Shown here in pieces: positions 2,972-58,459 of a DNA stretch of 64,000 nucleotides (position 1 is its first letter; each line of letters starts with the position of its first letter). Below the pieces are notes generated by a model. The model was not told the DNA's origin. It saw nothing but the letters and a program-made list of their open reading frames with translations, and made no database searches. The DNA is from Patescibacteria group bacterium (GTDB lineage Bacteria; Patescibacteriota; Patescibacteriia; UBA9934; GWF2-40-263). The translations under genes were made by a program, and so were the position numbers. The DNA lies in contig JBBTRQ010000008.1 of assembly GCA_038065075.1 (NCBI GenBank), positions 11,960-75,959 on the forward strand, written 5' to 3'.

Positions 2972-3733
2972 TTAGAGCACCGAGTCGATTGCGGCGGCGA
3001 CGGAGGAGAATGGGAGAGCTCCCTTGATGGGGATCGCGTTGCCGTCTGTGTCGATCACGAATGATCCAGGAGTACCGGAGACACCGGCGGCTCCACCGGC
3101 TTGGGCTTGAGCCTCGATCACGTCGTTATACTTTTCTGTGTCGAAGCAGTCCTGCCACTGGGTTGTGTTGAGCCCAAGGTCAGAGGCGAGGGTCGCATAG
3201 AACTCGCTCCCTAAGCTCGACTGATTCGTGAAGAGGGCATCTGCATACTCCCAGAACTTTCCTTGCTCAGAGGCGCACTCAGCGGCGTTGGCGGCAGGGA
3301 CGGCCTCAGCATGAAAGGAGAGTGGGAAGTGGCGGAAGACCCAGCGAACGGAATCGGTATACTCGTCCATGACCTGTAACATCGTTGGGTGGAATCGGCT
3401 GCAGTAGGGACATTGGAAGTCCGAGTATTCGATGATGGTGATGGGCGCGTCCGCGTCTCCACGGATGTGGTCTGCTTCTGTCACGGCAGGAACGCCCGTT
3501 GCGGTTGGGGCTGGAACGGCGGCAGCTGCGGCGGCCACTTGTCCACCGCTTCCTGAATCCTCGGTGTCTGCGGCGGCGAGTCCTTCGACGGAACAATCTC
3601 CGCCCAAGACACAGCTTCCCAAGACAACGAATCCGAGTGTTCCCAGTGCCAAGATCGCGGTGATGAACCCGAGCCAGAAGGCCTGTTTAGAAGGAAGCGA
3701 ATCGAAAAAACTTTTTGTTTGTGGTGAGTCCAT
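2972..3733 (-). CDS. DsbA-like thiol:disulfide oxidoreductase (thioredoxin fold) with N-terminal membrane anchor
   Basis: FQCPYCSRFHP with a CPYC active site and DsbA-like flanks. N-terminal TM helix plus an Ala/Pro-rich linker. Confidence 0.65.
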   Translation of the reverse strand: MDSPQTKSFFDSLPSKQAFWLGFITAILALGTLGFVVLGSCVLGGDCSVEGLAAADTEDSGSGGQVAAAAAAVPAPTATGVPAVTEADHIRGDADAPITIIEYSDFQCPYCSRFHPTMLQVMDEYTDSVRWVFRHFPLSFHAEAVPAANAAECASEQGKFWEYADALFTNQSSLGSEFYATLASDLGLNTTQWQDCFDTEKYNDVIEAQAQAGGAAGVSGTPGSFVIDTDGNAIPIKGALPFSSVAAAIDSVL

Positions 3734-4198: not shown

Positions 4199-5146
4199 AT
4201 GTTATACTTGTGGAATATGACCTCGAAGATCGACAAGCTGATGACCGACTTTCTCGAGTATCTTGAAGTTGAGCGCGGACGCTCTGAGCGTACGATCCGG
4301 AACTACGATTTTTATCTTCGCCGGTTTTCCGACTGGGCGAAGCACCCAGCGCCGGAAAAAATTACCGATGACCTCGTGCACAAGTTTCGCCTGTGGCTCA
4401 ACCGCGGTGTCGAAGGTCGTGAGGCAGCTACGCTCAAGAAGTCGACGCAGAATTATCACCTCATTGCGCTTCGAAGTTTCTTGAAGTACCTCGCCCGCAA
4501 GGATGTCTTGTCGCTCGCCCCTGAAAAGATCGAACTCGCCAAACAAGAAATGCGGCAGGTGGAGTTTTTGGAAGCAGATGAACTTGGTCGTCTGCTCGTT
4601 CAGCCGATGAAGGTCAGCGATGGGCTTGTGGCTTTGCGCGATAAAGCAATTCTTGAATTGCTGTTCTCGACCGGCATGCGCGTGAGCGAGATTTCCAAGC
4701 TGAAGATTGAGTCGATTAATTTATCGCGTGATGAATTTACGGTTCGTGGCAAGGGAAGCAAACTGCGCGTCGTGTTTCTCTCGTCGACCGCAAAGGACGC
4801 GCTCAAAGATTACTTGGGGAAGCGCCGTGACGCTTCGCCGTATCTGTTTGTGGGACATGATCGCGCCAAGAGCGGTCGTGGGCAGTCCGAAGGTCTCACA
4901 CCTCGATCGATCCAACGGCTTGTTGAGCGGTACGCCATGGCCGCGGGTATCACCAAGCACATCACGCCTCACACCCTGCGACATACATTTGCGACAGACT
5001 TACTCCTGGGCGGCGCGGACATCCGCAGTGTCCAGTCATTGCTAGGCCATGCCTCGATCACGACCACACAAATCTACACGCACATCACGAATAAACAGAT
5101 GAAAGAGGTGCACAAGAAGTTCCACGGAAGAAGTCGGCGGAAGTAA
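4199..5146 (+). CDS. xerC: Tyrosine site-specific recombinase, XerC/XerD family
   Basis: C-terminal HTLRHTFAT..GGADIRSVQSLLGHASITTTQIYTHI (R..HxxR..Y catalytic signature). N-terminal core-binding region ERGRSERTIRNY. Alternative starts exist at 4217. Confidence 0.8.
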   Translation: MLYLWNMTSKIDKLMTDFLEYLEVERGRSERTIRNYDFYLRRFSDWAKHPAPEKITDDLVHKFRLWLNRGVEGREAATLKKSTQNYHLIALRSFLKYLARKDVLSLAPEKIELAKQEMRQVEFLEADELGRLLVQPMKVSDGLVALRDKAILELLFSTGMRVSEISKLKIESINLSRDEFTVRGKGSKLRVVFLSSTAKDALKDYLGKRRDASPYLFVGHDRAKSGRGQSEGLTPRSIQRLVERYAMAAGITKHITPHTLRHTFATDLLLGGADIRSVQSLLGHASITTTQIYTHITNKQMKEVHKKFHGRSRRK

Positions 5147-9729: not shown

Positions 9730-12384
9730 ATGCCTACACAAACTCGACCCACCTTTCTCATCCTCGACGGCAACGCGCTCTTGCACCGCGCCTGGCACGC
9801 CATTCCCCCGCTGACCACAAAAGACGGTTTGGTTGTGAACGCCGCCTATGGGTTCGCGATGATTCTCGAGAAGATGATCGAGACGCAGAAGCCCGAGTAC
9901 ATGGCCGTGGCGTGGGACGTGGAGGGCGGCACATTTCGGGATGAGATTTTCGCCGCCTACAAAGCGCAGCGCGAGAAGAAGGAACAGGAGCTCTACGACC
10001 AGATTCCGATCATCCAAAAAATTCTCGCCGCATTTGGGATTCCTTCGATTGAAGCGCCTGGATACGAGGCCGACGACATTATCGGCACGCTCTCGAAACG
10101 GGCGGCGGATCAGGGATTGCGAGCACTGATCGTCACGGGCGACCTCGACAGTCTCCAGTTGGTCGACGAAAACGTGCAGGTACTATTTTTTCAAAAAGGG
10201 ATTAGCGAGACAAAACTCTACGACGTCGAGGCGGTGAAGGAGCGTTATGGGCTTACAGTAGATCAACTCATCGATTACAAAGCCCTGCGTGGAGATCCAA
10301 GCGATAACATTCCCGGAGTGGCTGGTATCGGTGAAAAAACCGCGACGACCTTGTTGCAGAAGTATCACTCGATCGACGGGATCTACAAACACCTCGAGCA
10401 GATTGAGGAGAAGTACGCCAAAAAACTTCGGGGCCAAGAAAAGACCGTCGAGATCGCGCTCAAGCTCGTGACGATCGTGCGCGACATGAAGTTTCCGTTC
10501 ACGTTTGAAGAGGCCAAGCGCGGCGCGCCCGATTACGAGAAACTTCTTCCCCTCTATAAGGATCTCGAGTTTCGTACGCTGTTGAAAAAACATGGCGAGC
10601 CGATGAGTGATGATGGTGGCCGTGGTGGTGTCCAAGGTGGTAGCCCCAGGCTTCAGCCTGGGTCCGAGAAGGTTGTCACTCGAGTTCAAATTGTCCGAAC
10701 GATCGAGCAGATCCAGCCCAGGCTGAAGCCTGGGGCTACCATCGCCGTTCTCATTGCGGAGCAACCCGCAGATCTTTTCGGGGCGACTACCGCCGCGGTG
10801 GGAATTTACGACGGAAAGAACACCGTCGTTCTCCCCAACCCGTCACGCGAGGCGCTCGCGTCTGTCGCAGGCATCCTAGCGAAGGCTGATCGAGTCATCA
10901 CTCACGATCTCAAACATCTCATGCACCAGCTTGGGAGCGTTGTCGATCGCCCGGCGTTCGACACCATGATTGCGTCGTATCTCCTTGCCTCAGGTTCTCG
11001 AGCACATGATTTACCTGGCGCCATGCATGGGTTCCTCGGTCGGTCGGTGGAAGTGCCAGCGACGTTTGCGAAAGAAAAAGATTACGAGCGGTTTGGACAA
11101 GTTGTCGCGGCTCTTCCGGAGCTTGCACAAAGAATGGAGAAAGAACTCGAGAAGGCGGGATCCACGAAGGTCTTCGGGGAGATTGAAATGCCACTTATTC
11201 CCGTCCTCTATCACATGGAGGTCGAAGGGATTGAGCTTGATACCAAGAGCCTCGAAGTTTTTTCCGCGAGTCTCAAAAAGCGTATCGACGAACTTACCAA
11301 GAAGATCACTAAGCTCGCCGGCGTCGAGTTTAATCTCAACTCCCCTTCCCAACTTGCGGACGTCTTGTTTGTGACCATGGGACTCTCAACCAAAGGCATC
11401 AAGAAAACAAAAACAGGATTCTCTACCGCCGCGCCAGAACTCGAGAAACTGTGGGACGCTCATGAGATCATTCCCCTGCTCTCCGAGTATCGCGAGCTGA
11501 CGAAGTTGCAGTCGACCTATGTGGAGGCCCTTCCCAAACTCGTTGCCAAGGACGGTCGTGTGCATACCAGTTTCAATCAAACCGTTGCGGCCACGGGGCG
11601 TTTATCTTCGTCGGATCCGAACTTGCAGAACATTCCGATCAAGACAGATCTTGGTCGTGAGATTCGCAAGGCGTTTGTCGCGCCACGCGGAAAAATTCTC
11701 GTTGCGGCCGACTACAGTCAGATCGAATTGCGGCTCGCCGCGGTGATCGCAAAAGACAGACCGTTCATCCAGGCGTTTCAGGAAGGGGCGGACATTCATA
11801 CCCGCACAGCGGCTGAGGTATGGGATGTGAGTGAGGAGAAGGTTACAAAGGAACAACGTCGCGCGGCCAAAGCGATAAACTTCGGGATTCTCTACGGCAT
11901 GGGGCCACGGTCGCTCTCGCGATCGACTGGACTTTCAATGGAAGAAGCAAAACATTTTATCGAGCGTTACTTTGAGATCCACCACGCGATCCGTGACTAT
12001 CTCGACCAAACAAAATTGAAGGCGCACACGGACGGCTATGTTGAAACGATGTTTGGTCGACGACGGTATCTCCCCGAGATTCAGTCGGGCGTGCCGATGC
12101 TGGTTGCGAGTGCGGAGCGCATGGCGATCAACATGCCGGTGCAAGGGACGGCCGCGGATATCATGAAAATGGCGATGCTGCGCGTGGACGGTTGGCTTAC
12201 GCAAAGCCAGTGGCCGGCAAAGATGCTTTTGCAGGTGCATGACGAGCTGGTGCTGGAAGTCGACAAGGCGGCGATGGAACCGGTCGTGGCGGGAGTCAAA
12301 GAAATGATGGAGAGCGTGGCGAGCTTTGAGGTGTCGCTGGTTGTGGACATCGAAGTGGGAAAAAACTGGGGGGAGATGAAATAG
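9730..12384 (+). CDS. polA: DNA polymerase I
   Basis: 5'-3' exonuclease region FLILDGNALLHRAWHA and LIDYKALRGDPSDNIPGVAGIGEKTA. Polymerase motifs RRAAKAINFGILYGMG and LLQVHDELVLE. Start taken at Met 9730 rather than the upstream ORF-track start. Confidence 0.9.
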   Translation: MPTQTRPTFLILDGNALLHRAWHAIPPLTTKDGLVVNAAYGFAMILEKMIETQKPEYMAVAWDVEGGTFRDEIFAAYKAQREKKEQELYDQIPIIQKILAAFGIPSIEAPGYEADDIIGTLSKRAADQGLRALIVTGDLDSLQLVDENVQVLFFQKGISETKLYDVEAVKERYGLTVDQLIDYKALRGDPSDNIPGVAGIGEKTATTLLQKYHSIDGIYKHLEQIEEKYAKKLRGQEKTVEIALKLVTIVRDMKFPFTFEEAKRGAPDYEKLLPLYKDLEFRTLLKKHGEPMSDDGGRGGVQGGSPRLQPGSEKVVTRVQIVRTIEQIQPRLKPGATIAVLIAEQPADLFGATTAAVGIYDGKNTVVLPNPSREALASVAGILAKADRVITHDLKHLMHQLGSVVDRPAFDTMIASYLLASGSRAHDLPGAMHGFLGRSVEVPATFAKEKDYERFGQVVAALPELAQRMEKELEKAGSTKVFGEIEMPLIPVLYHMEVEGIELDTKSLEVFSASLKKRIDELTKKITKLAGVEFNLNSPSQLADVLFVTMGLSTKGIKKTKTGFSTAAPELEKLWDAHEIIPLLSEYRELTKLQSTYVEALPKLVAKDGRVHTSFNQTVAATGRLSSSDPNLQNIPIKTDLGREIRKAFVAPRGKILVAADYSQIELRLAAVIAKDRPFIQAFQEGADIHTRTAAEVWDVSEEKVTKEQRRAAKAINFGILYGMGPRSLSRSTGLSMEEAKHFIERYFEIHHAIRDYLDQTKLKAHTDGYVETMFGRRRYLPEIQSGVPMLVASAERMAINMPVQGTAADIMKMAMLRVDGWLTQSQWPAKMLLQVHDELVLEVDKAAMEPVVAGVKEMMESVASFEVSLVVDIEVGKNWGEMK
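10639..10740. repeat. Miniature palindromic element inserted in frame inside polA
   Basis: Perfect 24-bp terminal inverted repeats: GGTAGCCCCAGGCTTCAGCCTGGG at 10639-10662 and CCCAGGCTGAAGCCTGGGGCTACC at 10717-10740. Each arm also contains an internal hairpin. Total 102 bp, equal to 34 codons, so the polA reading frame is preserved. Confidence 0.7.
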
Positions 12385-35413: not shown

Positions 35414-36013
35414 GGGGGCACATAAGTGCCGATCGGACCTAATATGCCCCCCAAAAAAGAACAAAAGGCTCTAAACGAACATTCTCGTACGGCGGAGCTA
35501 CTGGTCGAATTGGTTGATGATCTCGATCTTATTTTTACTTTCGGCTACCAACCTTTTGCCGTGATGAAATACGGAATGTCCGGTATTCGAGAAATGCGGG
35601 AGGCTCGAAAAAGGAGACGGGAGCGGGAGACCCTCCGTCGGCTCAAGGAAAAGAAACTGATCCAGATCGAAAAGCGGGCCGGTGATATCTATGTAGCCCT
35701 CACAGAAACTGGAGCAAAAGAATATCTGCGGCTGAAGGTACTTGATGCGGATTTGTATGAAGATGACCGTGAGTGTTTGGTTGTTTTTGATATTCCGGAG
35801 TCAAAACGAAAACTAAGAAAGTCACTTCGGGAGTTTTTATCAAACGCCGGGTTCATACCAATTCAAAAAAGCGTTTGGATTTCAAAGTTTGATGCCGGCA
35901 AAGCTATCAGTAAACTGCTGACGGTAAAAGGTTCAAAGCATTGGGTGAGGATTTTTGAAGTTCGAGAACAGTAGAAGCCCCACATAGGGTCCGATCGGCA
36001 CCTATGTGCCCCC
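35414..36013. mobile_element. 600-bp unit bounded by 26-bp inverted repeats, carrying one wHTH/Cas2-like gene
   Basis: IR-L GGGGGCACATAAGTGCCGATCGGACC (35414-35439). IR-R GGTCCGATCGGCACCTATGTGCCCCCC (35988-36013). One mismatch between the arms. The single gene lies exactly between them. Confidence 0.5.
35444..35974 (+). CDS. Winged-helix plus Cas2/VapD-like domain protein
   Basis: C-terminal VVFDIPESKRKLRKSLREFLSNAGFIPIQKSVWIS follows the Cas2 pattern (YDI..R..R..L...G.RIQ.SVF). N-terminal basic wHTH-like region. Paralog at 57860-58459. Confidence 0.45.
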   Translation: MPPKKEQKALNEHSRTAELLVELVDDLDLIFTFGYQPFAVMKYGMSGIREMREARKRRRERETLRRLKEKKLIQIEKRAGDIYVALTETGAKEYLRLKVLDADLYEDDRECLVVFDIPESKRKLRKSLREFLSNAGFIPIQKSVWISKFDAGKAISKLLTVKGSKHWVRIFEVREQ

Positions 36014-36084
36014 CGATTGTTTTTGAGTCGGCTGATGTTAGTTCGCGTTCAAACAAAACTCCCCGTCAGCGACGAGGAGTTTTG

Positions 36085-36160
36085 TGGTGGACCCTAGCGG
36101 GATCGAACCGCTGACCTTCTCCATGCCATGGAGACGCGCTACCAGCTGCGCTAAGGGCCC
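36085..36160 (-). tRNA. tRNA-Ala (anticodon GGC)
   Basis: Reverse complement GGGCCCT..AGGGTCC acceptor with G3:U70. Anticodon stem TCTCC/GGAGA with loop ATGGCAT. T arm GCGG-TTCGATC-CCGC. CCA encoded. Confidence 0.85.
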
Positions 36161-36259
36161 ATGAAGTTCGAGCAAAAGTCTATCAGTTCAGTGATGGGAA
36201 ATCAAGAATCCTTTGGTCATACAATAATAAAAGGAGCCGGGGGGCTCCTCGTGGGGGCG

Positions 36260-36778
36260 CTAGCTGGTGAGCGCCATCAAGACGCTGTCGGGGATGGTGA
36301 TCCCCTCGACCTTCGCGATCTCCGCGGCGAGCTCGATGAGCTCGGCCTGGAGGTTGTGCCCCCGGACGATCGAGACGAACTCGTCGGGGTTGTACTCATC
36401 GTCCTGGCTCAGGAACCAGTTCGCGGCGAAGAGAAGCATCTCCTCTTCCACCGGGCGGGTGAGGGTGCGGTCCAGACCGCTGAGGTCGTCGAAGACCTCC
36501 AGGACGGTGACGTCCCCACCGTGACCTTGGAAGGTGTAGTCGCCCCGCAAGGCGGGGATCTGGCCGTACAGGCCGGTGATGTCACCGCGCAGGTGGCTGG
36601 CATCACCCACGAGATCCTCGTGGACGTGGCCGTCCAGCGCGGAGAGGTTGCCGGTCAGGTTGGTGAGCGGTCCGGTGAGCGTCGAGACGTCACCGTGGCA
36701 GTCCTTCGCATCCCCCCACACACCCGCCGTCCCTTCGAGGTTCTGGGCGTTGATGAGGGTGGTTACATTGGGTCGCAT
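36260..36778 (-). CDS. Hypothetical protein with L-x-G heptad repeats, GC-rich island
   Basis: LTGPLTN/LTGNLSA/LVGDASH/LRGDITG/LYGQIPA tandem 7-residue repeats. No known domain. Confidence 0.35.
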   Translation of the reverse strand: MRPNVTTLINAQNLEGTAGVWGDAKDCHGDVSTLTGPLTNLTGNLSALDGHVHEDLVGDASHLRGDITGLYGQIPALRGDYTFQGHGGDVTVLEVFDDLSGLDRTLTRPVEEEMLLFAANWFLSQDDEYNPDEFVSIVRGHNLQAELIELAAEIAKVEGITIPDSVLMALTS

Positions 36779-36802
36779 CTCTTCTCATCCTTTCTCCGGG
36801 GT

Positions 36803-37621
36803 CTACGAACAAGTTCCCGGTTTCCACGATCCCTTGTTGAAGCGCATGGAGCGCTGGGTGCCGTCGTGGTCGATGACGATGTAGCAGTTTCCCAGTCGCG
36901 GGAGGCGGCTGTAGTTCTCGCATTGGTTCCACGCGCCACCGATGAGTTGCATCGGCAGAGCGTAGCCTTCTTGGCACCCGACCGCGTAGCAACCGTCGGG
37001 TTCGGGTCCGCCGCTCTTGCCGTGCAGGAGCGCGAAGCCCGTGCACGCGGGCGTTCCCCCGTCTTCCTGCGGGAGCGTGCGTTCGCGAGCGGGTACGGGA
37101 ATGGGTGTGGGCGCCGGTGTCGGCGTTGGCTCTGGAGACGGGGCGGGTGTCGGCGTCGGTTCGACGACGTCATCCTCCACCGCGATGTGCGCTGGACCAA
37201 ACGGATCGCGCTCCGGTCGGTCATCGGAGTCGAACTCCTCTTCGTCCGTCTCGTCCAAGGCCGTCGCTGGAGCGGCTTGCTGTGTCTGGTCTTGGATCGC
37301 GCGGCGCAGGAGATCGACCAAATCCCTGTCCCTGGTGATGATGACTGTGTTGCCGGTCACCTCGTCCGTGATAACGGCTCCTTCCTCACTCACCAGGAGC
37401 GTGGAGGAGTCGTCGTCTTCGGGCGCGTCCTCGACGGTTTGACGGCTGACGATCTGCACCGCCTTCGAGGGGAGCGTGAGCGCGGCGGCAAGGATGAGGA
37501 TGACGCCAAAGGTCTGGACGATGCCCTGCAGCCACCGCCTGTTGATCCGGATGCTGGCCATGAAGATCGAGGCGCCGATCCCCGCGACCAAGAAGTTCGT
37601 CGCAAACAGGAAGGGATCCAT
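36803..37621 (-). CDS. Membrane-anchored protein with Pro/Thr linker and Cys-rich C-terminal domain, GC-rich island
   Basis: N-terminal TM pair, a PTPAPSPEPTPTPAPTP linker, and a C-terminal region with 7 Cys. Start taken at Met 37621. Confidence 0.35.
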   Translation of the reverse strand: MDPFLFATNFLVAGIGASIFMASIRINRRWLQGIVQTFGVILILAAALTLPSKAVQIVSRQTVEDAPEDDDSSTLLVSEEGAVITDEVTGNTVIITRDRDLVDLLRRAIQDQTQQAAPATALDETDEEEFDSDDRPERDPFGPAHIAVEDDVVEPTPTPAPSPEPTPTPAPTPIPVPARERTLPQEDGGTPACTGFALLHGKSGGPEPDGCYAVGCQEGYALPMQLIGGAWNQCENYSRLPRLGNCYIVIDHDGTQRSMRFNKGSWKPGTCS

Positions 37622-37728
37622 GATGTCTCCTATTCGTTCCGGACAGGCGAGCATGACGCTCGTCAACCCGGGAAAATACCCCTCGCTTGCGAGCGAGGGG
37701 AGGAACCGACGCGATGCCGGTTACGTGT

Positions 37729-39144
37729 TCAAGGAGCGGGGGTCTCGTCGCCCTGATCGTGAGCGAGCTGCGCGCGCATTTCTTCAAGCTGACGCGCCTG
37801 CTCGTCCACCTCGCGGCGGAGTTCCGAGCGGGTCTCGGAAAGCTCGCGGGAGAGCGAGCCGACTTGGCCGCCGACACGACGATCGAGCGCCTGGATCGAC
37901 TCCCGACTCTCCACGGCCAGAGACGCGTAGTTGTCGCGCTCCTGCGTGAGGTCCACGATCTCCGCGTCCTTCTCGGCCAGCACCGGGACGAGTCGCGCCA
38001 GTGTCCGAGCGTGGCTCTGGAGGCTCTGCGTGTGCTCGGCGATGACCTCATCCTGTGCCGCATCGCGCTCCAGGGAAGCGGTGCGGATCTGCCCGTCGGC
38101 TCGCATGAGGAAGGCCGCCACGACGCCGATGAGCGCCATGCACAACACGAGGATGATCCACAGCTCCCCCTGCAGTCCGCGAACGTCCTGCGCATGGATC
38201 TTGGCTGCCGGCTGGGGTTCCTGATGGAGGGCAGTGCCGGCGATCGGGGTGCGATTGCGCGTACCCTTGCGTCGAGCCGGTGGAACCACCCGGATTGGGA
38301 CGAAGTCGGCCTTGTCGGCCGCGTCCTGGAGGGCGTTGAGCATCTCGACCTCTTTCGCAATGAGCAACGGCTCGGGCGGCGGCGGGCCATCGTGAGCGAG
38401 GTCTATCTCCCATTCGTCCAAGACGAGGTCGGGAACCTCGTCGAGCTCGTCCACGGCTACGTCGTAGCGCTCCATGGCTTCGCGCAGTACACGCGCATCA
38501 AGATCCTCGGGCGACTCGGGTTCTGGCGGTGCGATCGTCGCCTCTGCCGCTGTGCGATTGACCTGCTCGGACAGTTGCTTGATCGCCCACCGGTTGTGGG
38601 CGGCGGCGATGTGCTCGATGGCGCTCTTGAACAGATGCGGCTCTGGCTCGACAGTGCCGCCCAGGACGCGCAGCAGAACTTGCCAGTCGCGTCCGTTGAC
38701 CTGTTCGCAGCGCTCCATGATCGTTACGGCGGTCCGGCCGAGATCCTCTTCGTTGAAGGGCGCGCTCGAAAGATCGACGAAGGCGAGATTCTTCCGCACG
38801 AACTCGAGCTGGCCTTCCAGCGTCCGCAGGCTCTCGATCTCGTGATCGACGACGCACACGTCTTCGATCTTGAGACCCGTGCCGGTCGTGCCTCGCCGCG
38901 TGCGTACCACGCGACTGGTCGCGAGGGCATCGGCGCGCGCCCGGGCTTCCTCATCGGCGCGCGCGATGTCCTCGTTGCGGTCGCGCGGGACGAGCCGAAT
39001 CGGCGTGGGGGGAGCAGCTTCCCGGTCATCGATCGTCTCCGCGTCAGGCGGAGCGGTGGCGGCGTTGGTGTGCAGACGAAGGGGCGCCCCGTCAGCGGGG
39101 TCGTTGGCATCGTTGCTCATGCGGTCTCCTGTGTACGGAACCAT
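37729..39144 (-). CDS. Hypothetical single-pass membrane protein with C-terminal coiled coil, GC-rich island
   Basis: Internal TM helix LWIILVLCMALIGVVAAFLM and a long Glu/Arg/Leu-rich C-terminal region. AAGGAGA ribosome-binding site before Met 39144. Confidence 0.35.
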   Translation of the reverse strand: MVPYTGDRMSNDANDPADGAPLRLHTNAATAPPDAETIDDREAAPPTPIRLVPRDRNEDIARADEEARARADALATSRVVRTRRGTTGTGLKIEDVCVVDHEIESLRTLEGQLEFVRKNLAFVDLSSAPFNEEDLGRTAVTIMERCEQVNGRDWQVLLRVLGGTVEPEPHLFKSAIEHIAAAHNRWAIKQLSEQVNRTAAEATIAPPEPESPEDLDARVLREAMERYDVAVDELDEVPDLVLDEWEIDLAHDGPPPPEPLLIAKEVEMLNALQDAADKADFVPIRVVPPARRKGTRNRTPIAGTALHQEPQPAAKIHAQDVRGLQGELWIILVLCMALIGVVAAFLMRADGQIRTASLERDAAQDEVIAEHTQSLQSHARTLARLVPVLAEKDAEIVDLTQERDNYASLAVESRESIQALDRRVGGQVGSLSRELSETRSELRREVDEQARQLEEMRAQLAHDQGDETPAP

Positions 39145-39349
39145 GGCCGTCTCCTTTCTCATCTTAGGATTTTCTGTCCTTTTAGGGAAAGGGACAGGGA
39201 GTTAAACTCCCATAATATAAAGCGGTTGTCAACGGATGTGCTCAAATGCAGGATTCAGGAGGATATTGACAAAATGTCAACGGCCGAGTATCTTTTTCGG
39301 GTTCTGGCTCCGTGGCAACCAGCACGTTCCTTCCACATCCCGCCACATC

Positions 39350-40393
39350 CTCATGGAGCATCCGATGCCGACCGAGACCACCGACAACGGCGCCAAGAGC
39401 GTCTTCGTCTTCCCCAGCCGTCCCGAGGACGCCGTCGTCCACCTCGTCATCAACGTCAGGGGGATGCAGGGCGATGGCCTGCTCCTGAGCGCCTCGACGA
39501 TCCCCGGCAGTCAGACCTGGGAGCACGACGAGGTCGAGCAGATCTTCCGCGACTCCCGCACCGTGCCCATCAAGGGCGTGTACGTCCTGGAGACCAACAA
39601 CGACGGCACGAACTTCGTCATCACCCCCGAGGGGGTGGATCAGGACGACCGCCGCGCGCTCGTCTGGACGCTGTCCAAGCGGCTCGACCGCTTCCTCATC
39701 GACCTCATCAAGGCCCTGCGGGCCTTCCCGTCCGCCGAGGTCATCGACCAGGCCGCGCGGGAGGGCGTGGCCCGCATCAACATGGGCAGCCTCGAGCGCG
39801 ACCCGATGGGCACCACCCCGGTCGTCGACGCCCGCAACGTGGTCGTCGAGGGCGTGAAGTGCGTGCACTGCGGGTTCGGCATCGAGAGCGCGCTCGGCCA
39901 GTTCCCGGGCCGCCTCCTCCTCATCGCCGCCATCGACGACGACAGCACCACGGTCGGCAACCTCAAGTTCATCGTCCGCGAGCGCGACGGCCAGCCCGTC
40001 GTGCTGGTGGGCTACCTCGGCGACAAGAACGCCTTCGCCGCCTTCCTCAACGGGGAGCTGGCCCAGCGCGTCCGCGCGGCGATCCAGGCCGTGGCCGTCG
40101 AGGTCGTGACCGAGATCCTCGTCCGCGCCGAGAACGGGCGTCGGCAGTTCGAGCGGATGGTCGATTCCGTCCAGGCCACCTACGGCATCGACCCCGAGGT
40201 CGTCGTCCAGCGCGTCAACGAGCTGGAGGCCGAGGCCCGCGCCCAGCGCACCCCGCCCGAGGACAAGGTCGACGACTACGACGGCAACGAGGACGACCTC
40301 CTCGACGAGGAGCCCGCCGGCGACCCCGCCCCCGAGTCGGCCGCCCCCGCGGAGCCCGCCCCGGCCCCCGTGGAGGCCGGGGCCTCCACCTGA
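39350..40393 (+). CDS. Hypothetical protein, GC-rich island
   Basis: 348-aa ORF divergent from the 37729-39144 gene. Acidic Pro/Ala-rich tail. No known motif. Confidence 0.35.
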   Translation, partial: LMEHPMPTETTDNGAKSVFVFPSRPEDAVVHLVINVRGMQGDGLLLSASTIPGSQTWEHDEVEQIFRDSRTVPIKGVYVLETNNDGTNFVITPEGVDQDDRRALVWTLSKRLDRFLIDLIKALRAFPSAEVIDQAAREGVARINMGSLERDPMGTTPVVDARNVVVEGVKCVHCGFGIESALGQFPGRLLLIAAIDDDSTTVGNLKFIVRERDGQPVVLVGYLGDKNAFAAFLNGELAQRVRAAIQAVAVEVVTEILVRAENGRRQFERMVDSVQATYGIDPEVVVQRVNELEAEARAQRTPPEDKVDDYDGNEDDLLDEEPAGDPAPESAAPAEPAPAPVEAGAST

Positions 40394-40533
40394 TCGACCC
40401 CGTCGATCGCACGCACCCCTGATTCACCGAGTCTGACTCGAAGGATCGGGGGTTTTACATTTCCGGCAAAATCCTTTATTCTTGCAGTTACCTTGGCGGT
40501 GGCAGCCAGGCATTCAATTCAACCCTTGCCACA

Positions 40534-40830
40534 TTGGAGAGACCAATGGAGCCCGGAAGCGACGCCCCGATCATCGAGGAGCCCGGAACCGAGAGCCCCC
40601 CGCCCGCGCAGGAGCCCGCGCCCGCCGGCGACCCCGCCTCCGAGTCGGCCGTCGCGCCGCCCGAAGGCGACGCCCCGGCGCAGGAGTCCGCGCCCGCCGC
40701 CCAGAGCGACGGCGGCGAGGCCCCCGGCGAGGAGGCCCACGAGGACGGCGACGACGACGACGAGGAGCCCGACGGCGACGACGACGACGAGGACGAGGAC
40801 GCCCCGCCCACCGAGGAGAGCCAGGGCTAG
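40534..40830 (+). CDS. Highly acidic low-complexity protein, GC-rich island
   Basis: 98 aa dominated by E/D/P/A. May not be a genuine gene. Confidence 0.2.
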   Translation: MERPMEPGSDAPIIEEPGTESPPPAQEPAPAGDPASESAVAPPEGDAPAQESAPAAQSDGGEAPGEEAHEDGDDDDEEPDGDDDDEDEDAPPTEESQG

Positions 40831-41017
40831 ACACGCCCCGGCCAAGTACATCCAGAACCCCAACGGCGAGGTCACTCGCATCACCAGCGCTTGCTGGACG
40901 CACCCCCGAAATTCCGTCACGGAGTCTCGGGGGATTTACTTTTTTAGACATCGCGACTTTTTGTCGCTATACTCGCCACTGATTCATCGCAGGCTAAAAT
41001 CTTTGACACGCGCTCAA

Positions 41018-41074
41018 ATGGTAGCCGCAGGCTTCAGCCTGCGTCCGAACGCGGGCTAAAGCCCGCGGCTACCC
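41018..41074. repeat. Short sibling of the polA-internal palindromic element
   Basis: GGTAGCCGCAGGCTTCAGCCTGCG..tccgaac..GCGGCTACC shares its terminal motif and the internal tccgaac with the element at 10639-10740. Confidence 0.65.
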
Positions 41075-57353: not shown

Positions 57354-57860
57354 TCAAGTTTCGGAAAAACCTAACTTGAGCAATGTGTCGCGTGCGTCTT
57401 CTAATTGGTCGGCTTTCACAAGGACATAATCTTTTGAGTAGGTTGAGACAATCAGGATATTCATGCCGCTATCGGCAATAGCCTGGCTGATCCTCGCGAG
57501 GAAACCGACGCAGTAGAATGGAATGGCTACATTGAGTGCAATGAGTCGATAGTCGTCTTTGTTGCGTTCGATAAGATCGAGGGTCGTAACGTTTTCAGAT
57601 TGTGTCACCACGGTGATCTCGTCTCCATCTTTCGTTACCATGAAGTGATTTTCATCTGGCCAACTCTTGACCTTGGCGTACACGAACATCCCGTCTTCGA
57701 TGCTAAAAGAGCTTGCGTGGATGATGTCATTAAGTTGCTGTCTCATAGTCGTTTTACTGAGATTGAGCTTACGGAGAAAGTCTACCACTGAGAGCTCAAT
57801 ACAAGGAACTGTCCGCAATTCAGTTGATGACTTTTTTAGACCGGGGTACAAAAAAGTCAT
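57354..57860 (-). CDS. ACT-domain protein
   Basis: C-terminal ..GFLARISQAIADSGMNILIVSTYSKDYVLV.. beta-alpha-beta-beta ACT pattern. Start taken at MTFLYPG, overlapping the upstream gene's stop (TGATGA). Confidence 0.45.
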   Translation of the reverse strand: MTFLYPGLKKSSTELRTVPCIELSVVDFLRKLNLSKTTMRQQLNDIIHASSFSIEDGMFVYAKVKSWPDENHFMVTKDGDEITVVTQSENVTTLDLIERNKDDYRLIALNVAIPFYCVGFLARISQAIADSGMNILIVSTYSKDYVLVKADQLEDARDTLLKLGFSET

Positions 57861-58459
57861 CACTGCTGTCTCGCGAGGAATACCTCTACCCACGTTTGGA
57901 TCTTCGCTGATTTTACGAAGTCCCGGACATCATCGATGACATCAAGATCTGACTTCCAGACACTCTTTTGGACTTGCGTGAAACCAGCCTTCTTAAGAAA
58001 GGCTCGAAATGAATTTCGACCACGTCTAGCATCGACGGGAAAATCAAATAACACCAAACAGATGAAACCATCAGGGAGTTTCGGACGTTCCTTCATGGTT
58101 TCTTTCCTAAGTTTCACCTGACCTTCCTTTGACAACTCGACAAACAAACGACCTTCCACCTTTTTTGTCTGAATGAGCTTTTTCCGCCGTAGGTAAGCAA
58201 GTCGGTTTCGGTAGGCACTCGCCGCTCTTTCACGTTCCTCTGCGAGCGTGTGCTCGCCCTCATAGCGGTGTGGCTGTCGTCTTGCCCACTGTTCGAACAA
58301 TTCAGAGGCTTCTCGAGCCTCGTCCTCGAGCAACTCAAGGAAGTCGCTGATTTTGTGGTTTATGCTTCTTTCTTCTCTGTTCATAAATGCTGAAATTAAT
58401 CGACCGGGGTCTAAAAAAGTCATCGTGAGAAAGTGCTGCGGGAGCCACTTCAAAAACAA
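57860..58459 (-). CDS. Winged-helix plus Cas2/VapD-like domain protein (second paralog)
   Basis: ICLVLFDFPVDARRGRNSFRAFLKKAGFTQVQKSVWKS parallels 35444-35974. Translationally coupled to the ACT gene. Confidence 0.45.
   Translation of the reverse strand: MFLKWLPQHFLTMTFLDPGRLISAFMNREERSINHKISDFLELLEDEAREASELFEQWARRQPHRYEGEHTLAEERERAASAYRNRLAYLRRKKLIQTKKVEGRLFVELSKEGQVKLRKETMKERPKLPDGFICLVLFDFPVDARRGRNSFRAFLKKAGFTQVQKSVWKSDLDVIDDVRDFVKSAKIQTWVEVFLARQQ

Follow-up and report, generated by a model that had tools for sequence, protein, structure and literature searches.

A PaaX-like gene of Patescibacteria bracketed by two copies of its own palindrome: a putative self-repressing cassette

Genes and features of unit A

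The window analysed here is a 64-kb stretch of DNA from a Patescibacteria group bacterium (positions 11,960 to 75,959 of contig JBBTRQ010000008.1). Between a gene encoding a tetratricopeptide repeat (TPR) protein and a tRNA-Ala gene, it carries a 600-bp unit, unit A, in which a single gene for a small protein related to the regulator PaaX is bracketed by two copies of a palindrome. As argued below, this unit may be a self-contained and self-repressing gene cassette, whose product would bind its own flanking palindromes as a PaaX-type dimer. Unit A consists of the following features:

35414-35452, plus strand: upstream site U, a 39-bp quasi-palindrome made of GGGGGCACATAAGTGCCGA and TCGGACCTAATATGCCCCCC on the two sides of its centre (35432/35433)
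35444-35974, plus strand: gene of unit A, from ATG to stop, encoding 176 aa (winged helix at about residues 15-101, Cas2-like domain at residues 109-174)
35976-36014, plus strand: downstream site D, a quasi-palindrome made of GCCCCACATAGGGTCCGA and TCGGCACCTATGTGCCCCCC on the two sides of its centre (35994/35995)

An initial annotation of this DNA reported a 26-nt inverted repeat with one mismatch bracketing a single open reading frame (ORF). This repeat is real. Its copies, of sequence GGGGGCACATAAGTGCCGATCGGACC with a single A/G mismatch, lie at 35414-35439 (plus strand) and 35988-36013 (minus strand); the pattern GGGGGCACATARGTGCCGATCGGACC has no other match in the 64 kb, and the chance expectation is 0 (100 shuffles, up to three mismatches allowed). 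A repeat search extends the pair to 33 nt at 88%. The repeats are not, however, terminal inverted repeats of the kind that bound insertion sequences (IS) or miniature inverted-repeat transposable elements (MITEs), as had been proposed, but belong to two copies of one palindrome. Indeed, CCGATCGG is present in both arms, and the apparent terminal repeats are the outer arms of quasi-palindromes of about 39 bp centred on this sequence. As each repeat is half of such a quasi-palindrome, the two sites are both direct and inverted repeats of each other. Site U is symmetric at 15 of 20 positions and includes in its right arm the ATG of the gene, 11 nt past the centre (an alternative GTG start lies at 35426), while site D begins 2 nt past the stop codon, the two centres being 562 bp apart. 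Further copies of the repeat had also been envisaged; none is found in the window with up to three mismatches. No target-site duplication is visible at unit A.

The tRNA-Ala(GGC) gene lies at 36085-36160 on the minus strand, with its 3' end 71 bp from the repeat, in agreement with the distance of about 70 bp given initially. The absence of a CRISPR context also holds, since no CRISPR array was detected in the 64-kb window by Tandem Repeats Finder or Rfam (cas1 was not explicitly searched for). Orthologues with 63-87% protein identity occupy the same place, between the gene of a 790-aa TPR protein and tRNA-Ala, and they are still found at this position where the neighbouring protein is no more than about 55-65% identical. 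Each orthologue has its own pair of palindromes, with a CGATCG core (CCGATCGG or ACGATCGG) and different outer arms; an inner motif, CAC-R-N-W-AG, is common to these palindromes, and one of the sites is a perfect 44-bp palindrome. All the orthologous units (the window, L001-L004, L085 and L086) are co-linear and in a single orientation. No strain-level polymorphism was found at unit A, the other contigs that encode an identical protein being identical to the window.

More distant relatives keep the TPR gene and tRNA-Ala but lack both the gene of unit A and any such palindrome. Empty sites, which the initial annotation had considered worth looking for, thus exist: L115 displays the synteny of L003 minus the unit, and L116 and L117 are also devoid of it. 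This comparison rules out the possibility, raised in that annotation, that the repeat is a conserved structure flanking the tRNA gene. Since the gene-less relatives also lack the palindrome, the repeat belongs to the gene and not to the tRNA, and comparison of these loci shows that gain or loss affects the gene together with both of its palindromes.

The protein encoded by unit A

The C-terminal half of the protein is Cas2-like, as had been read from its sequence. Residues 111-174 match Pfam PF20803, 'PaaX central Cas2-like domain' (57.4 bits, E=1.6e-15, for a gathering score of 24), and the protein passes the cut-off of the NCBIfam profile TIGR01573 cas2 (31.3 bits for 24.5), while PF09827 (Cas2) remains slightly below threshold (23.1 bits for 23.8). 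The equivalog profile of PaaX, TIGR02277, scores only 15.5 bits for a cut-off of 264.55. The N-terminal half is not matched by PF07848 in Pfam, and sequence profiles provide only weak winged-helix matches (ArsR/MarR/AspA, DUF6293_C). The winged helix that had been suspected there is nonetheless supported by structure. An AlphaFold model (pLDDT 73) predicts a helix-wing-helix at residues 54-101 (helix 54-69, wing 73-86), followed at residues 109-174 by a beta-alpha-beta-beta-alpha-beta arrangement with a ferredoxin-like fold. The best Foldseek match of this model is E. coli PaaX (8a39), aligned over both domains (120 columns), and it is followed by about 20 Cas2 chains with a probability of about 1.0 and target-normalised TM-scores of 0.5-0.6.

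The architecture is therefore not the undescribed one that had been supposed, as a winged helix followed by a Cas2-like domain corresponds to the N-terminal two thirds of PaaX (PF20803; PDB 8a39). The protein stops at residue 176 and has no Pfam match to PF08223, the C-terminal effector domain of PaaX. It is thus a 'mini-PaaX', with a winged helix and a Cas2-like domain but without the effector domain. An identical protein is recorded in NCBI as 'MAG: CRISPR-associated endonuclease Cas2 [Patescibacteria group bacterium]', a name that results from the TIGR01573 cut-off being passed and that is probably a misnomer for the whole family.

The Cas2-like domain carries the motif VVFDIPE...QKSVW. In the alignment of the family, the invariant residues (F115, D116, P118, E119, R125, Q141, S143 and V144) are those of the Cas2 signature; FD[IV]PE is kept in 134 of the 148 top representatives and the wider x-D-[IVLT]-[PS]-[ED] in 138. 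No recombinase, HUH or transposase domain was detected in the unit A protein with Pfam, NCBIfam or PADLOC, the last of which returned only generic Cas2 and winged-helix matches, and the HUH motif is absent from the family alignment.

A family of genes bracketed by private palindromes

A profile search of 1.84 billion cluster representatives (clusters at 50% identity) retrieved 6620 representatives of the family at E<=1e-3 and 5198 at E<=1e-10. The protein length ranges from 139 to 239 aa among the best 150 representatives and is typically about 180 aa. A scan limited to one genome per species returned 80 homologous loci, all the sequences compared being metagenome assemblies, and nine assemblies supply 2-6 of these loci each. 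The titles that name a lineage mostly refer to groups of the candidate phyla radiation (CPR); some TPA_asm bin titles bear Gammaproteobacteria, Saccharibacteria or Puniceicoccaceae labels, which are taken here as given.

With a repeat score of at least 16 as criterion, 67 of the 80 family genes are bracketed by a repeat, versus none of 50 neighbouring genes (median scores of 23.75 and 9.5, respectively). The brackets are two copies of a locus-specific palindrome of 38-40 bp, and the density of strong palindromes at the ends of the family genes is about 40-fold that of the rest of the loci. The central hexamer common to both sites is CGATCG in 27 loci and CCATGG in 18; other cores are CGGCCG, CGTACG, CTATAG and asymmetric hybrids. 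As the core type tracks the protein tree only partly, it seems to have switched several times. The six paralogues of DAIPKT01, a single metagenome-assembled genome, all have different arms; wherever they are readable, the sites of each paralogue carry different arms, and this is also the case for unit A and unit B, a second unit of the window that is described below. No description of this palindrome-bracketed layout was found in the full-text literature, the coverage of which was incomplete, so that this is absence of evidence only.

The neighbours of family genes that were sampled are not enriched for recognised defence genes. A link with known mobile elements was also looked for and rejected, as no homologue was found in IMG/VR viral contigs, PLSDB plasmids or GenBank phages. 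Among the 60 loci scanned, about 10 have a tRNA gene close to the unit, at a distance of some 150 bp or less (L024, L026, L028, L046, L049, L051, L058, L059, L064). This proximity is above the level suggested by the tRNA density of such genomes, and the members of one paralogue group always lie between tRNA-Arg(GCG) and tRNA-Ser(GCT).

It had been proposed that such a unit is moved by a trans-acting transposase, like a MITE or IS-like element with terminal inverted repeats, the Cas2-like gene being a passenger. Several features of unit A recall such elements: a short inverted repeat of 26 nt bounds a small unit of 600 bp, the upstream repeat overlaps expression signals, the unit adjoins a tRNA gene and related lineages display presence/absence polymorphism. 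The family as a whole nevertheless makes this reading scarcely credible. The target duplications that the initial annotation gave as a possible sign of movement do not exist, the longest word shared by the outer flanks averaging 4.23 over 47 loci, versus 4.10 +/- 0.14 for the null. In 29 loci the two sites match each other best as direct repeats, and in 18 as inverted repeats; each end is by itself a full palindrome, and no multiple identical copies in the 64 kb and no transposase domain were found. Furthermore, the ends are tied to one gene family and differ in every member, so that no single transposase could serve them. The MITE/IS reading is thus largely refuted.

Anatomy of the sites

The statistics on the symmetry and conservation of the sites and on the position of start codons rely on 47 scored loci. 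The central 8 bp of the sites are almost invariant. Symmetry is 0.53-0.81 at positions 5-9 from the centre and rises to 0.70-0.94 at positions 10-17, where identity between the two copies is 0.70-0.96, with a peak of 0.96 at position 14. The latter positions are poorly conserved across loci (0.0-0.7 bits in the CGATCG class), and identity between the copies is at background level beyond +/-20. Such a bipartite profile fits a dimeric or symmetric protein that would make spaced contacts, and does not fit a hairpin.

A strong palindrome is found near the start in 25 loci and near the stop in 40, the upstream copy being less perfect, as expected if it also carries expression signals. The ATG is located exactly 11 nt past the centre in 6 of the 47 loci, all from the Uhrbacteria-like subfamily to which unit A belongs, and 10-12 nt past it in most other members of this subfamily. 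The upstream copy of several AT-rich members can be read as a promoter (for example, TTGACG-N17-TATAAT in L033 and TTGCCA-N17-TATAAT in L081), whereas the downstream copies of these members lack a good -10 element. A fixed promoter geometry at the upstream site was considered and discarded, given its frequency among the 47 loci and the situation at unit A, both of which are detailed below.

The palindromes could also act as RNA: stem-loops at the 5' and 3' ends, or a long-range duplex between these ends, would stabilise, terminate or process the mRNA, possibly with the Cas2-like domain as an RNase, an activity reported for some Cas2 proteins. Every site can indeed fold into a hairpin of 14-23 bp, and runs of A and T give some of the downstream or solo copies the appearance of bidirectional terminators (a solo palindrome of the window at 2658-2693; the downstream site of L013). 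Nevertheless, no selection for a sense-strand RNA hairpin is seen, since G:T mismatches are not in excess over A:C mismatches (34 versus 44 upstream, 39 versus 30 downstream) and transversions make up most of the mismatches. The putative loop is bordered by the least symmetric positions (5-9), and the highest symmetry is found further out, which is the reverse of a selected hairpin. Moreover, T tracts are not consistent, as many downstream sites either have T runs before the stem and A runs after it or have no runs (L061, L079), and a terminator scan does not call the downstream site of unit A. A role as RNA hairpin or terminator is therefore very improbable and, together with the MITE reading, can be regarded as largely excluded.

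Unit B, solo palindromes and arrays

Besides unit A, the window includes a paralogous unit and a solitary palindrome:

57825-57862, minus strand: downstream site of unit B, TGATGACTTTTTTGTACC-CC-GGTCTAAAAAAGTCATCA (minus-strand reading), overlapping the TGA stop
57860-58384, minus strand: gene of unit B, encoding a 174-aa paralogue that is 35% identical to the unit A protein (PF20803, 45.4 bits)
58388-58424, minus strand: upstream site of unit B, GATGACTTTTTTAGACC-CC-GGTCGATTAATTTCAGCA (minus-strand reading), ending 3 nt before the ATG at 58384
2658-2693, no strand: solo perfect palindrome of 36 bp made of the halves AAAAACAATAATGTCCGA and TCGGACATTATTGTTTTT, with CCGATCGG at its centre and A5/T5 ends

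Unit B (57825-58424) is located between an ACT-domain gene and a divergent rpoB-like gene (frame from 58767). Its palindromes, of 38 bp with an ACC-CC-GGT centre, differ in sequence from those of unit A; their outer arms are identical as reverse complements at 17 of 17 positions, and no extra copy of the site exists in the 64 kb.

The solo palindrome has no adjacent family gene. It is located between convergent genes, after a nucleotidyltransferase/HepT (MNT-HEPN) toxin-antitoxin pair (MNT/HepT, 1727-2595), and the gene that faces HepT across it is a 253-aa ORF (2972-3733). It resembles the sites of a different member of the family, L012. Its inner 20-mer is also carried by 26 metagenome contigs; in most of them it belongs to a solo perfect palindrome, 32-50 bp long, and the intergenic contexts are unrelated. 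A perfect palindrome, ACGAACAATAATGTCCGATCGGACATTATTGTTC, has a 34-bp stretch that is identical in at least five flanking contexts, and 36 bp are identical in three of them. Solo sites are infrequent, with one in the 64-kb window and two or three candidates centred on CGATCG or CCATGG outside the units in about 250 kb of flanking DNA. A function shared by their neighbours was considered and dropped, the genes concerned being diverse (PrgI, SHMT/Ham1, TrmB/MiaA, MFS). The solo palindromes may derive from cassettes.

Two loci carry more than two sites. In L104, five units 145-168 bp long are repeated in tandem at 1644-2460; each of them starts with the 44-bp palindrome CGATGCAGTTTTAATGTCCGATCGGACATTAAAACTGCATCG and continues with about 100 nt of conserved sequence. 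The repeat unit has no match in Rfam and its fold displays almost no covariation. The same palindrome also precedes a family gene in L112, a contig of the same sample. In L093, one palindrome is found at 3215, 3852 and 6597, that is, a full unit plus a third copy past the next gene. The resulting layout, site-gene-site-gene-site (the family gene, then a DUF3160 gene), is reminiscent of a cassette array.

Insertion, inversion and history of the units

The palindromes directly abut the neighbouring genes, and the units are inserted whatever the orientation of these genes. On the upstream side, the neighbour has the orientation of the family gene in 29 loci and is divergent from it in 12. On the downstream side, the neighbour has the orientation of the family gene in 23 loci and is convergent with it in 20, a distribution that led us to reject the idea that the downstream site serves this neighbour as operator.

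In-place inversion between conserved flanks was observed in three groups of orthologues, between species in each case. The unit of L068 is co-linear with those of L055 and L033 at 81-83% nucleotide identity (proteins 80-83% identical), and the flank of the downstream site of L055 is found, reversed, beside the upstream site in L068, with homology that reaches the edge of the palindrome. Both flanks are reversed between L025 and L082 (64% aa identity) and between L008 and L013 (39% aa identity). Most other groups of orthologues, including that of the window, are co-linear. These comparisons show that the cassette inverts in place over evolutionary time, and in one case they trace the breakpoint to the palindrome edge.

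The history of the two sites is not uniform. Mean arm identities within a site, between sites as direct repeats and between sites as inverted repeats are 24.3, 24.3 and 23.2 of 32, respectively; these values being equal, no uniform history of duplication or of hybrid sites is observed. In particular, a hybrid-site scheme, in which the outer arms would be the old chromosomal site and the inner arms those of the element, fits unit A (outer arms 14/16, inner arms 8/16) but was rejected as a general one.

A self-repressing cassette as the preferred reading

The reading that we prefer, to which we attribute a probability of roughly 0.5, is that unit A is a self-contained gene cassette that represses itself through PaaX-type binding to its palindromes. 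Two subunits of the truncated 176-aa PaaX-type protein would pair through their Cas2-like domains, as judged from PaaX and Cas2, and in the dimer the two winged helices would be separated by about three helical turns. The dimer could then bind a palindrome of 38-40 bp through the invariant core (CGATCG here) and through cassette-specific outer blocks located 10-17 bp off the centre. Since the start codon and the likely promoter region lie under the upstream palindrome, occupancy of this palindrome would shut the gene off, as PaaX does at its promoter Px. The second palindrome, past the stop, may be a second binding site that would either loop to the first or act as a roadblock isolating the gene from neighbours of either orientation; this is the weakest step of the proposal. 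Finally, private palindromes for each paralogue would allow several cassettes to coexist in a genome without cross-talk. Being long and nearly identical palindromes, the two sites are also substrates for recombination.

PaaX, a phenylacetyl-CoA-responsive regulator of E. coli and Pseudomonas (PDB 8a39; PF07848 + PF20803 + PF08223), is the closest known system. E. coli PaaX comprises a winged helix and a dimerisation domain, binds as operator a 39-bp palindrome, TGATTC-N27-GAATCA, and represses its own promoter by steric hindrance (PMC9493321). Unit A shares with it the succession of a winged helix and a Cas2-like domain, as well as the size and the bipartite symmetry of an operator of about 39 bp with spaced half-sites, to which binding is here putative. 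It differs from it by a protein of 176 aa without the C-terminal effector domain, instead of about 305-316 aa, and by the lack of paa genes nearby. At the scale of the family, the sites have an invariant central core and occur as two copies that bracket the gene, and the family has expanded in CPR bacteria, with many paralogues that have private sites.

The likeness to Cas2 (TIGR01573, PF09827) and VapD concerns the fold and its signature, hydrophobic-D-[IT]-[PS]-[DE]...R...L...G...Q.SV[FW]; Cas2 is, moreover, dimeric and works beside partly palindromic repeats of 28-40 bp. In unit A, however, the domain is fused to a winged helix, and the repeats lie on either side of the gene itself, at about 560 bp from each other, in a window devoid of any CRISPR array.

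Several observations weigh against repression as the whole explanation. A -10-like hexamer at a fixed offset of +17 is present in just 5 of the 47 upstream sites, and no sigma-70-like promoter was found upstream of the ATG of unit A. The only recognisable targets of the putative regulator would be its own two ends, which leaves it with no obvious cellular role. The solo palindromes are located at convergent gene ends (SHMT/Ham1, TrmB/MiaA, HepT/253-aa ORF), which are not operator positions, and neither gain and loss nor inversion is explained by repression alone. Conservation of FD[IV]PE exceeds what a pure dimerisation domain would appear to need. Several loci are perfectly symmetric even at the spacer positions while their two sites differ (in L061, 16/16 and 16/16 within sites versus 11/16 between sites). 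Such full symmetry, which a PaaX-type operator does not need, points to a hairpin or cruciform potential or to a DNA process that symmetrises the sites. In L056, the two sites are near-identical direct copies that are poorly symmetric.

Alternative roles for the protein

Altogether, the symmetry of the sites, the solos at convergent gene ends, the DNA dynamics and the acidic Cas2 motif exceed the needs of a simple operator, and these four features keep an enzymatic reading alive. According to it, the protein would be the enzyme of a palindrome-based DNA element: the winged helix would recognise the palindromes, perhaps as extruded hairpins or cruciforms, and the Cas2-fold domain would nick or recombine them. 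This would give inversion, excision to a circle, re-insertion at solo sites and spread of solo copies, repression at the upstream site being a side function, as in many insertion sequences. Such a role would account for the joint presence or absence of the gene and both palindromes between the TPR gene and tRNA-Ala, for the three in-place inversions, for units that abut genes of any orientation, and for the solo sites, the five-fold array of L104 and the three sites and two genes of L093. Sites that are perfectly symmetric independently of their partner, the conserved acidic motif and the tRNA genes close to some units are also in its favour.

We consider this enzymatic role possible though doubtful. 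None of the domains of a recombinase, HUH enzyme or transposase was detected, and to our knowledge, no Cas2-fold protein catalyses strand exchange. Near-identical copies elsewhere are lacking, the sites of units A and B being without any other copy in the 64 kb, the orthologues are stably syntenic, and in the DNA scanned the solos are below REP-like abundance. The four arms provide no general signature of hybrid sites (attB x attP) or of duplication, and viral, phage and plasmid homologues are missing from the databases mentioned above. Furthermore, inversion between 40-bp inverted repeats could be passive. The broader proposal that CPR bacteria carry a class of autonomous DNA cassettes, unrecognised so far, in which a winged-helix/Cas2-fold protein recognises its own 40-bp palindromes and cuts or recombines them, thus leading to inversion, excision and re-insertion at solos, is unlikely.

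Two known systems are relevant to this enzymatic proposal. Like REP-associated tyrosine transposases (RAYTs) with their repetitive extragenic palindromes (REPs), the family involves a single-copy, vertically inherited gene flanked by its own extragenic palindromes, several classes of gene and palindrome per genome, and solo palindromes in other intergenic DNA. However, the unit A protein is not an HUH/Y1 enzyme according to Pfam and NCBIfam, and family solos are few in the DNA scanned, whereas REPs number tens to hundreds per genome. The Hin/hix systems (H segment of Salmonella, G segment of phage Mu) similarly consist of a segment of about 0.6-1 kb located between two quasi-palindromic sites, with a gene for a protein of about 180-190 aa that has a DNA-binding domain. 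Both orientations between the same flanks are found in relatives from three other orthologue groups of the family. Unlike these systems, the unit A protein displays no serine or tyrosine recombinase domain (Pfam, NCBIfam, PADLOC), inversion in the family is seen between species only, with all the orthologues of unit A in one orientation, and the sites are often fully symmetric or directly oriented.

Another reading, a single-chain addiction or defence module, is mechanistically the self-repressing cassette with a specific biological role added. A toxic Cas2/VapD-like nuclease would be self-repressed by the fused winged helix through the flanking operators, and the cassette would persist since its loss or deregulation is harmful, or since infection is aborted. 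VapD toxins are homologues of Cas2, and the family has kept the Asp motif of catalytic type. The only detectable candidate binding sites are the ends of the gene itself, many diverged paralogues occur per genome, as in toxin-antitoxin families, and the solo palindrome of the window adjoins the MNT/HepT pair. Such a module is nevertheless quite improbable, given that there is no antitoxin partner and no evidence of a labile domain, that the PADLOC matches are generic, and that the neighbours sampled show no enrichment in recognised defence genes.

The initial annotation had viewed the unit as a minimal selfish element. This view gains some support, as the unit is gained or lost whole and flips in place, and solo sites exist; no target duplication and, in the 64 kb, no second copy of the repeat were found. 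On the whole, unit A is neither Cas2, nor PaaX proper, nor a MITE, a RAYT or an invertase, as the defining features of each are lacking. On our analysis it is best described as a putative truncated PaaX-like autoregulator with a pair of candidate operators that brackets its gene.

Implications

The genes of the family are automatically annotated as 'CRISPR-associated endonuclease Cas2' or 'PaaX' and are neither. They are common in the ultra-small, genome-reduced CPR bacteria, where few regulators are known, and a gene located between two private palindromes of 38-40 bp is a simple signature that can be scanned for. If the self-repression reading is true, the family would amount to a large natural collection of orthogonal repressor/operator pairs. 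If the enzymatic one is true, the family would represent self-recombining elements of a new kind, comparable in function to REP/RAYT or Hin/hix and based on the Cas2 fold, for which this activity would be new. It would also include free-living Cas2-type proteins acting on palindromic repeats outside CRISPR, which would bear on the origin of the association of Cas2 with CRISPR repeats. Under either reading, the palindromes indicate where CPR genomes have been rearranged, by inversion or by gain and loss.

Surroundings of the tRNA-Ala gene

The tRNA-Ala(GGC) gene is on the minus strand in the window, L001 and L117 and on the plus strand in L002, L003 and L115. As its strand differs among relatives in this way, it has been flipped repeatedly between them, regardless of the presence of the unit.

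Directly past this gene, the G+C content of the window reaches 0.61-0.69 over positions 36200-41000, versus about 0.48-0.58 around. The first two genes called in this stretch (172 and 272 aa) have no Pfam match. Since the region downstream of the tRNA gene differs between relatives, the G+C-rich stretch may be an acquired island. At its end, a large imperfect G+C-rich hairpin (41020-41073; 25-nt arms, 4-nt loop) is unrelated in sequence to the palindromes of the family.

In L002, a fragment resembling the 5' part of a tRNA (GGGTGGTTAGCTCAGTTGGTA), followed by a G+C-rich quasi-palindrome of 68 bp, is found at 4711-4800 (as in L005), directly upstream of the intact tRNA-Ala gene. This fragment could be the scar of an integration or of a rearrangement.

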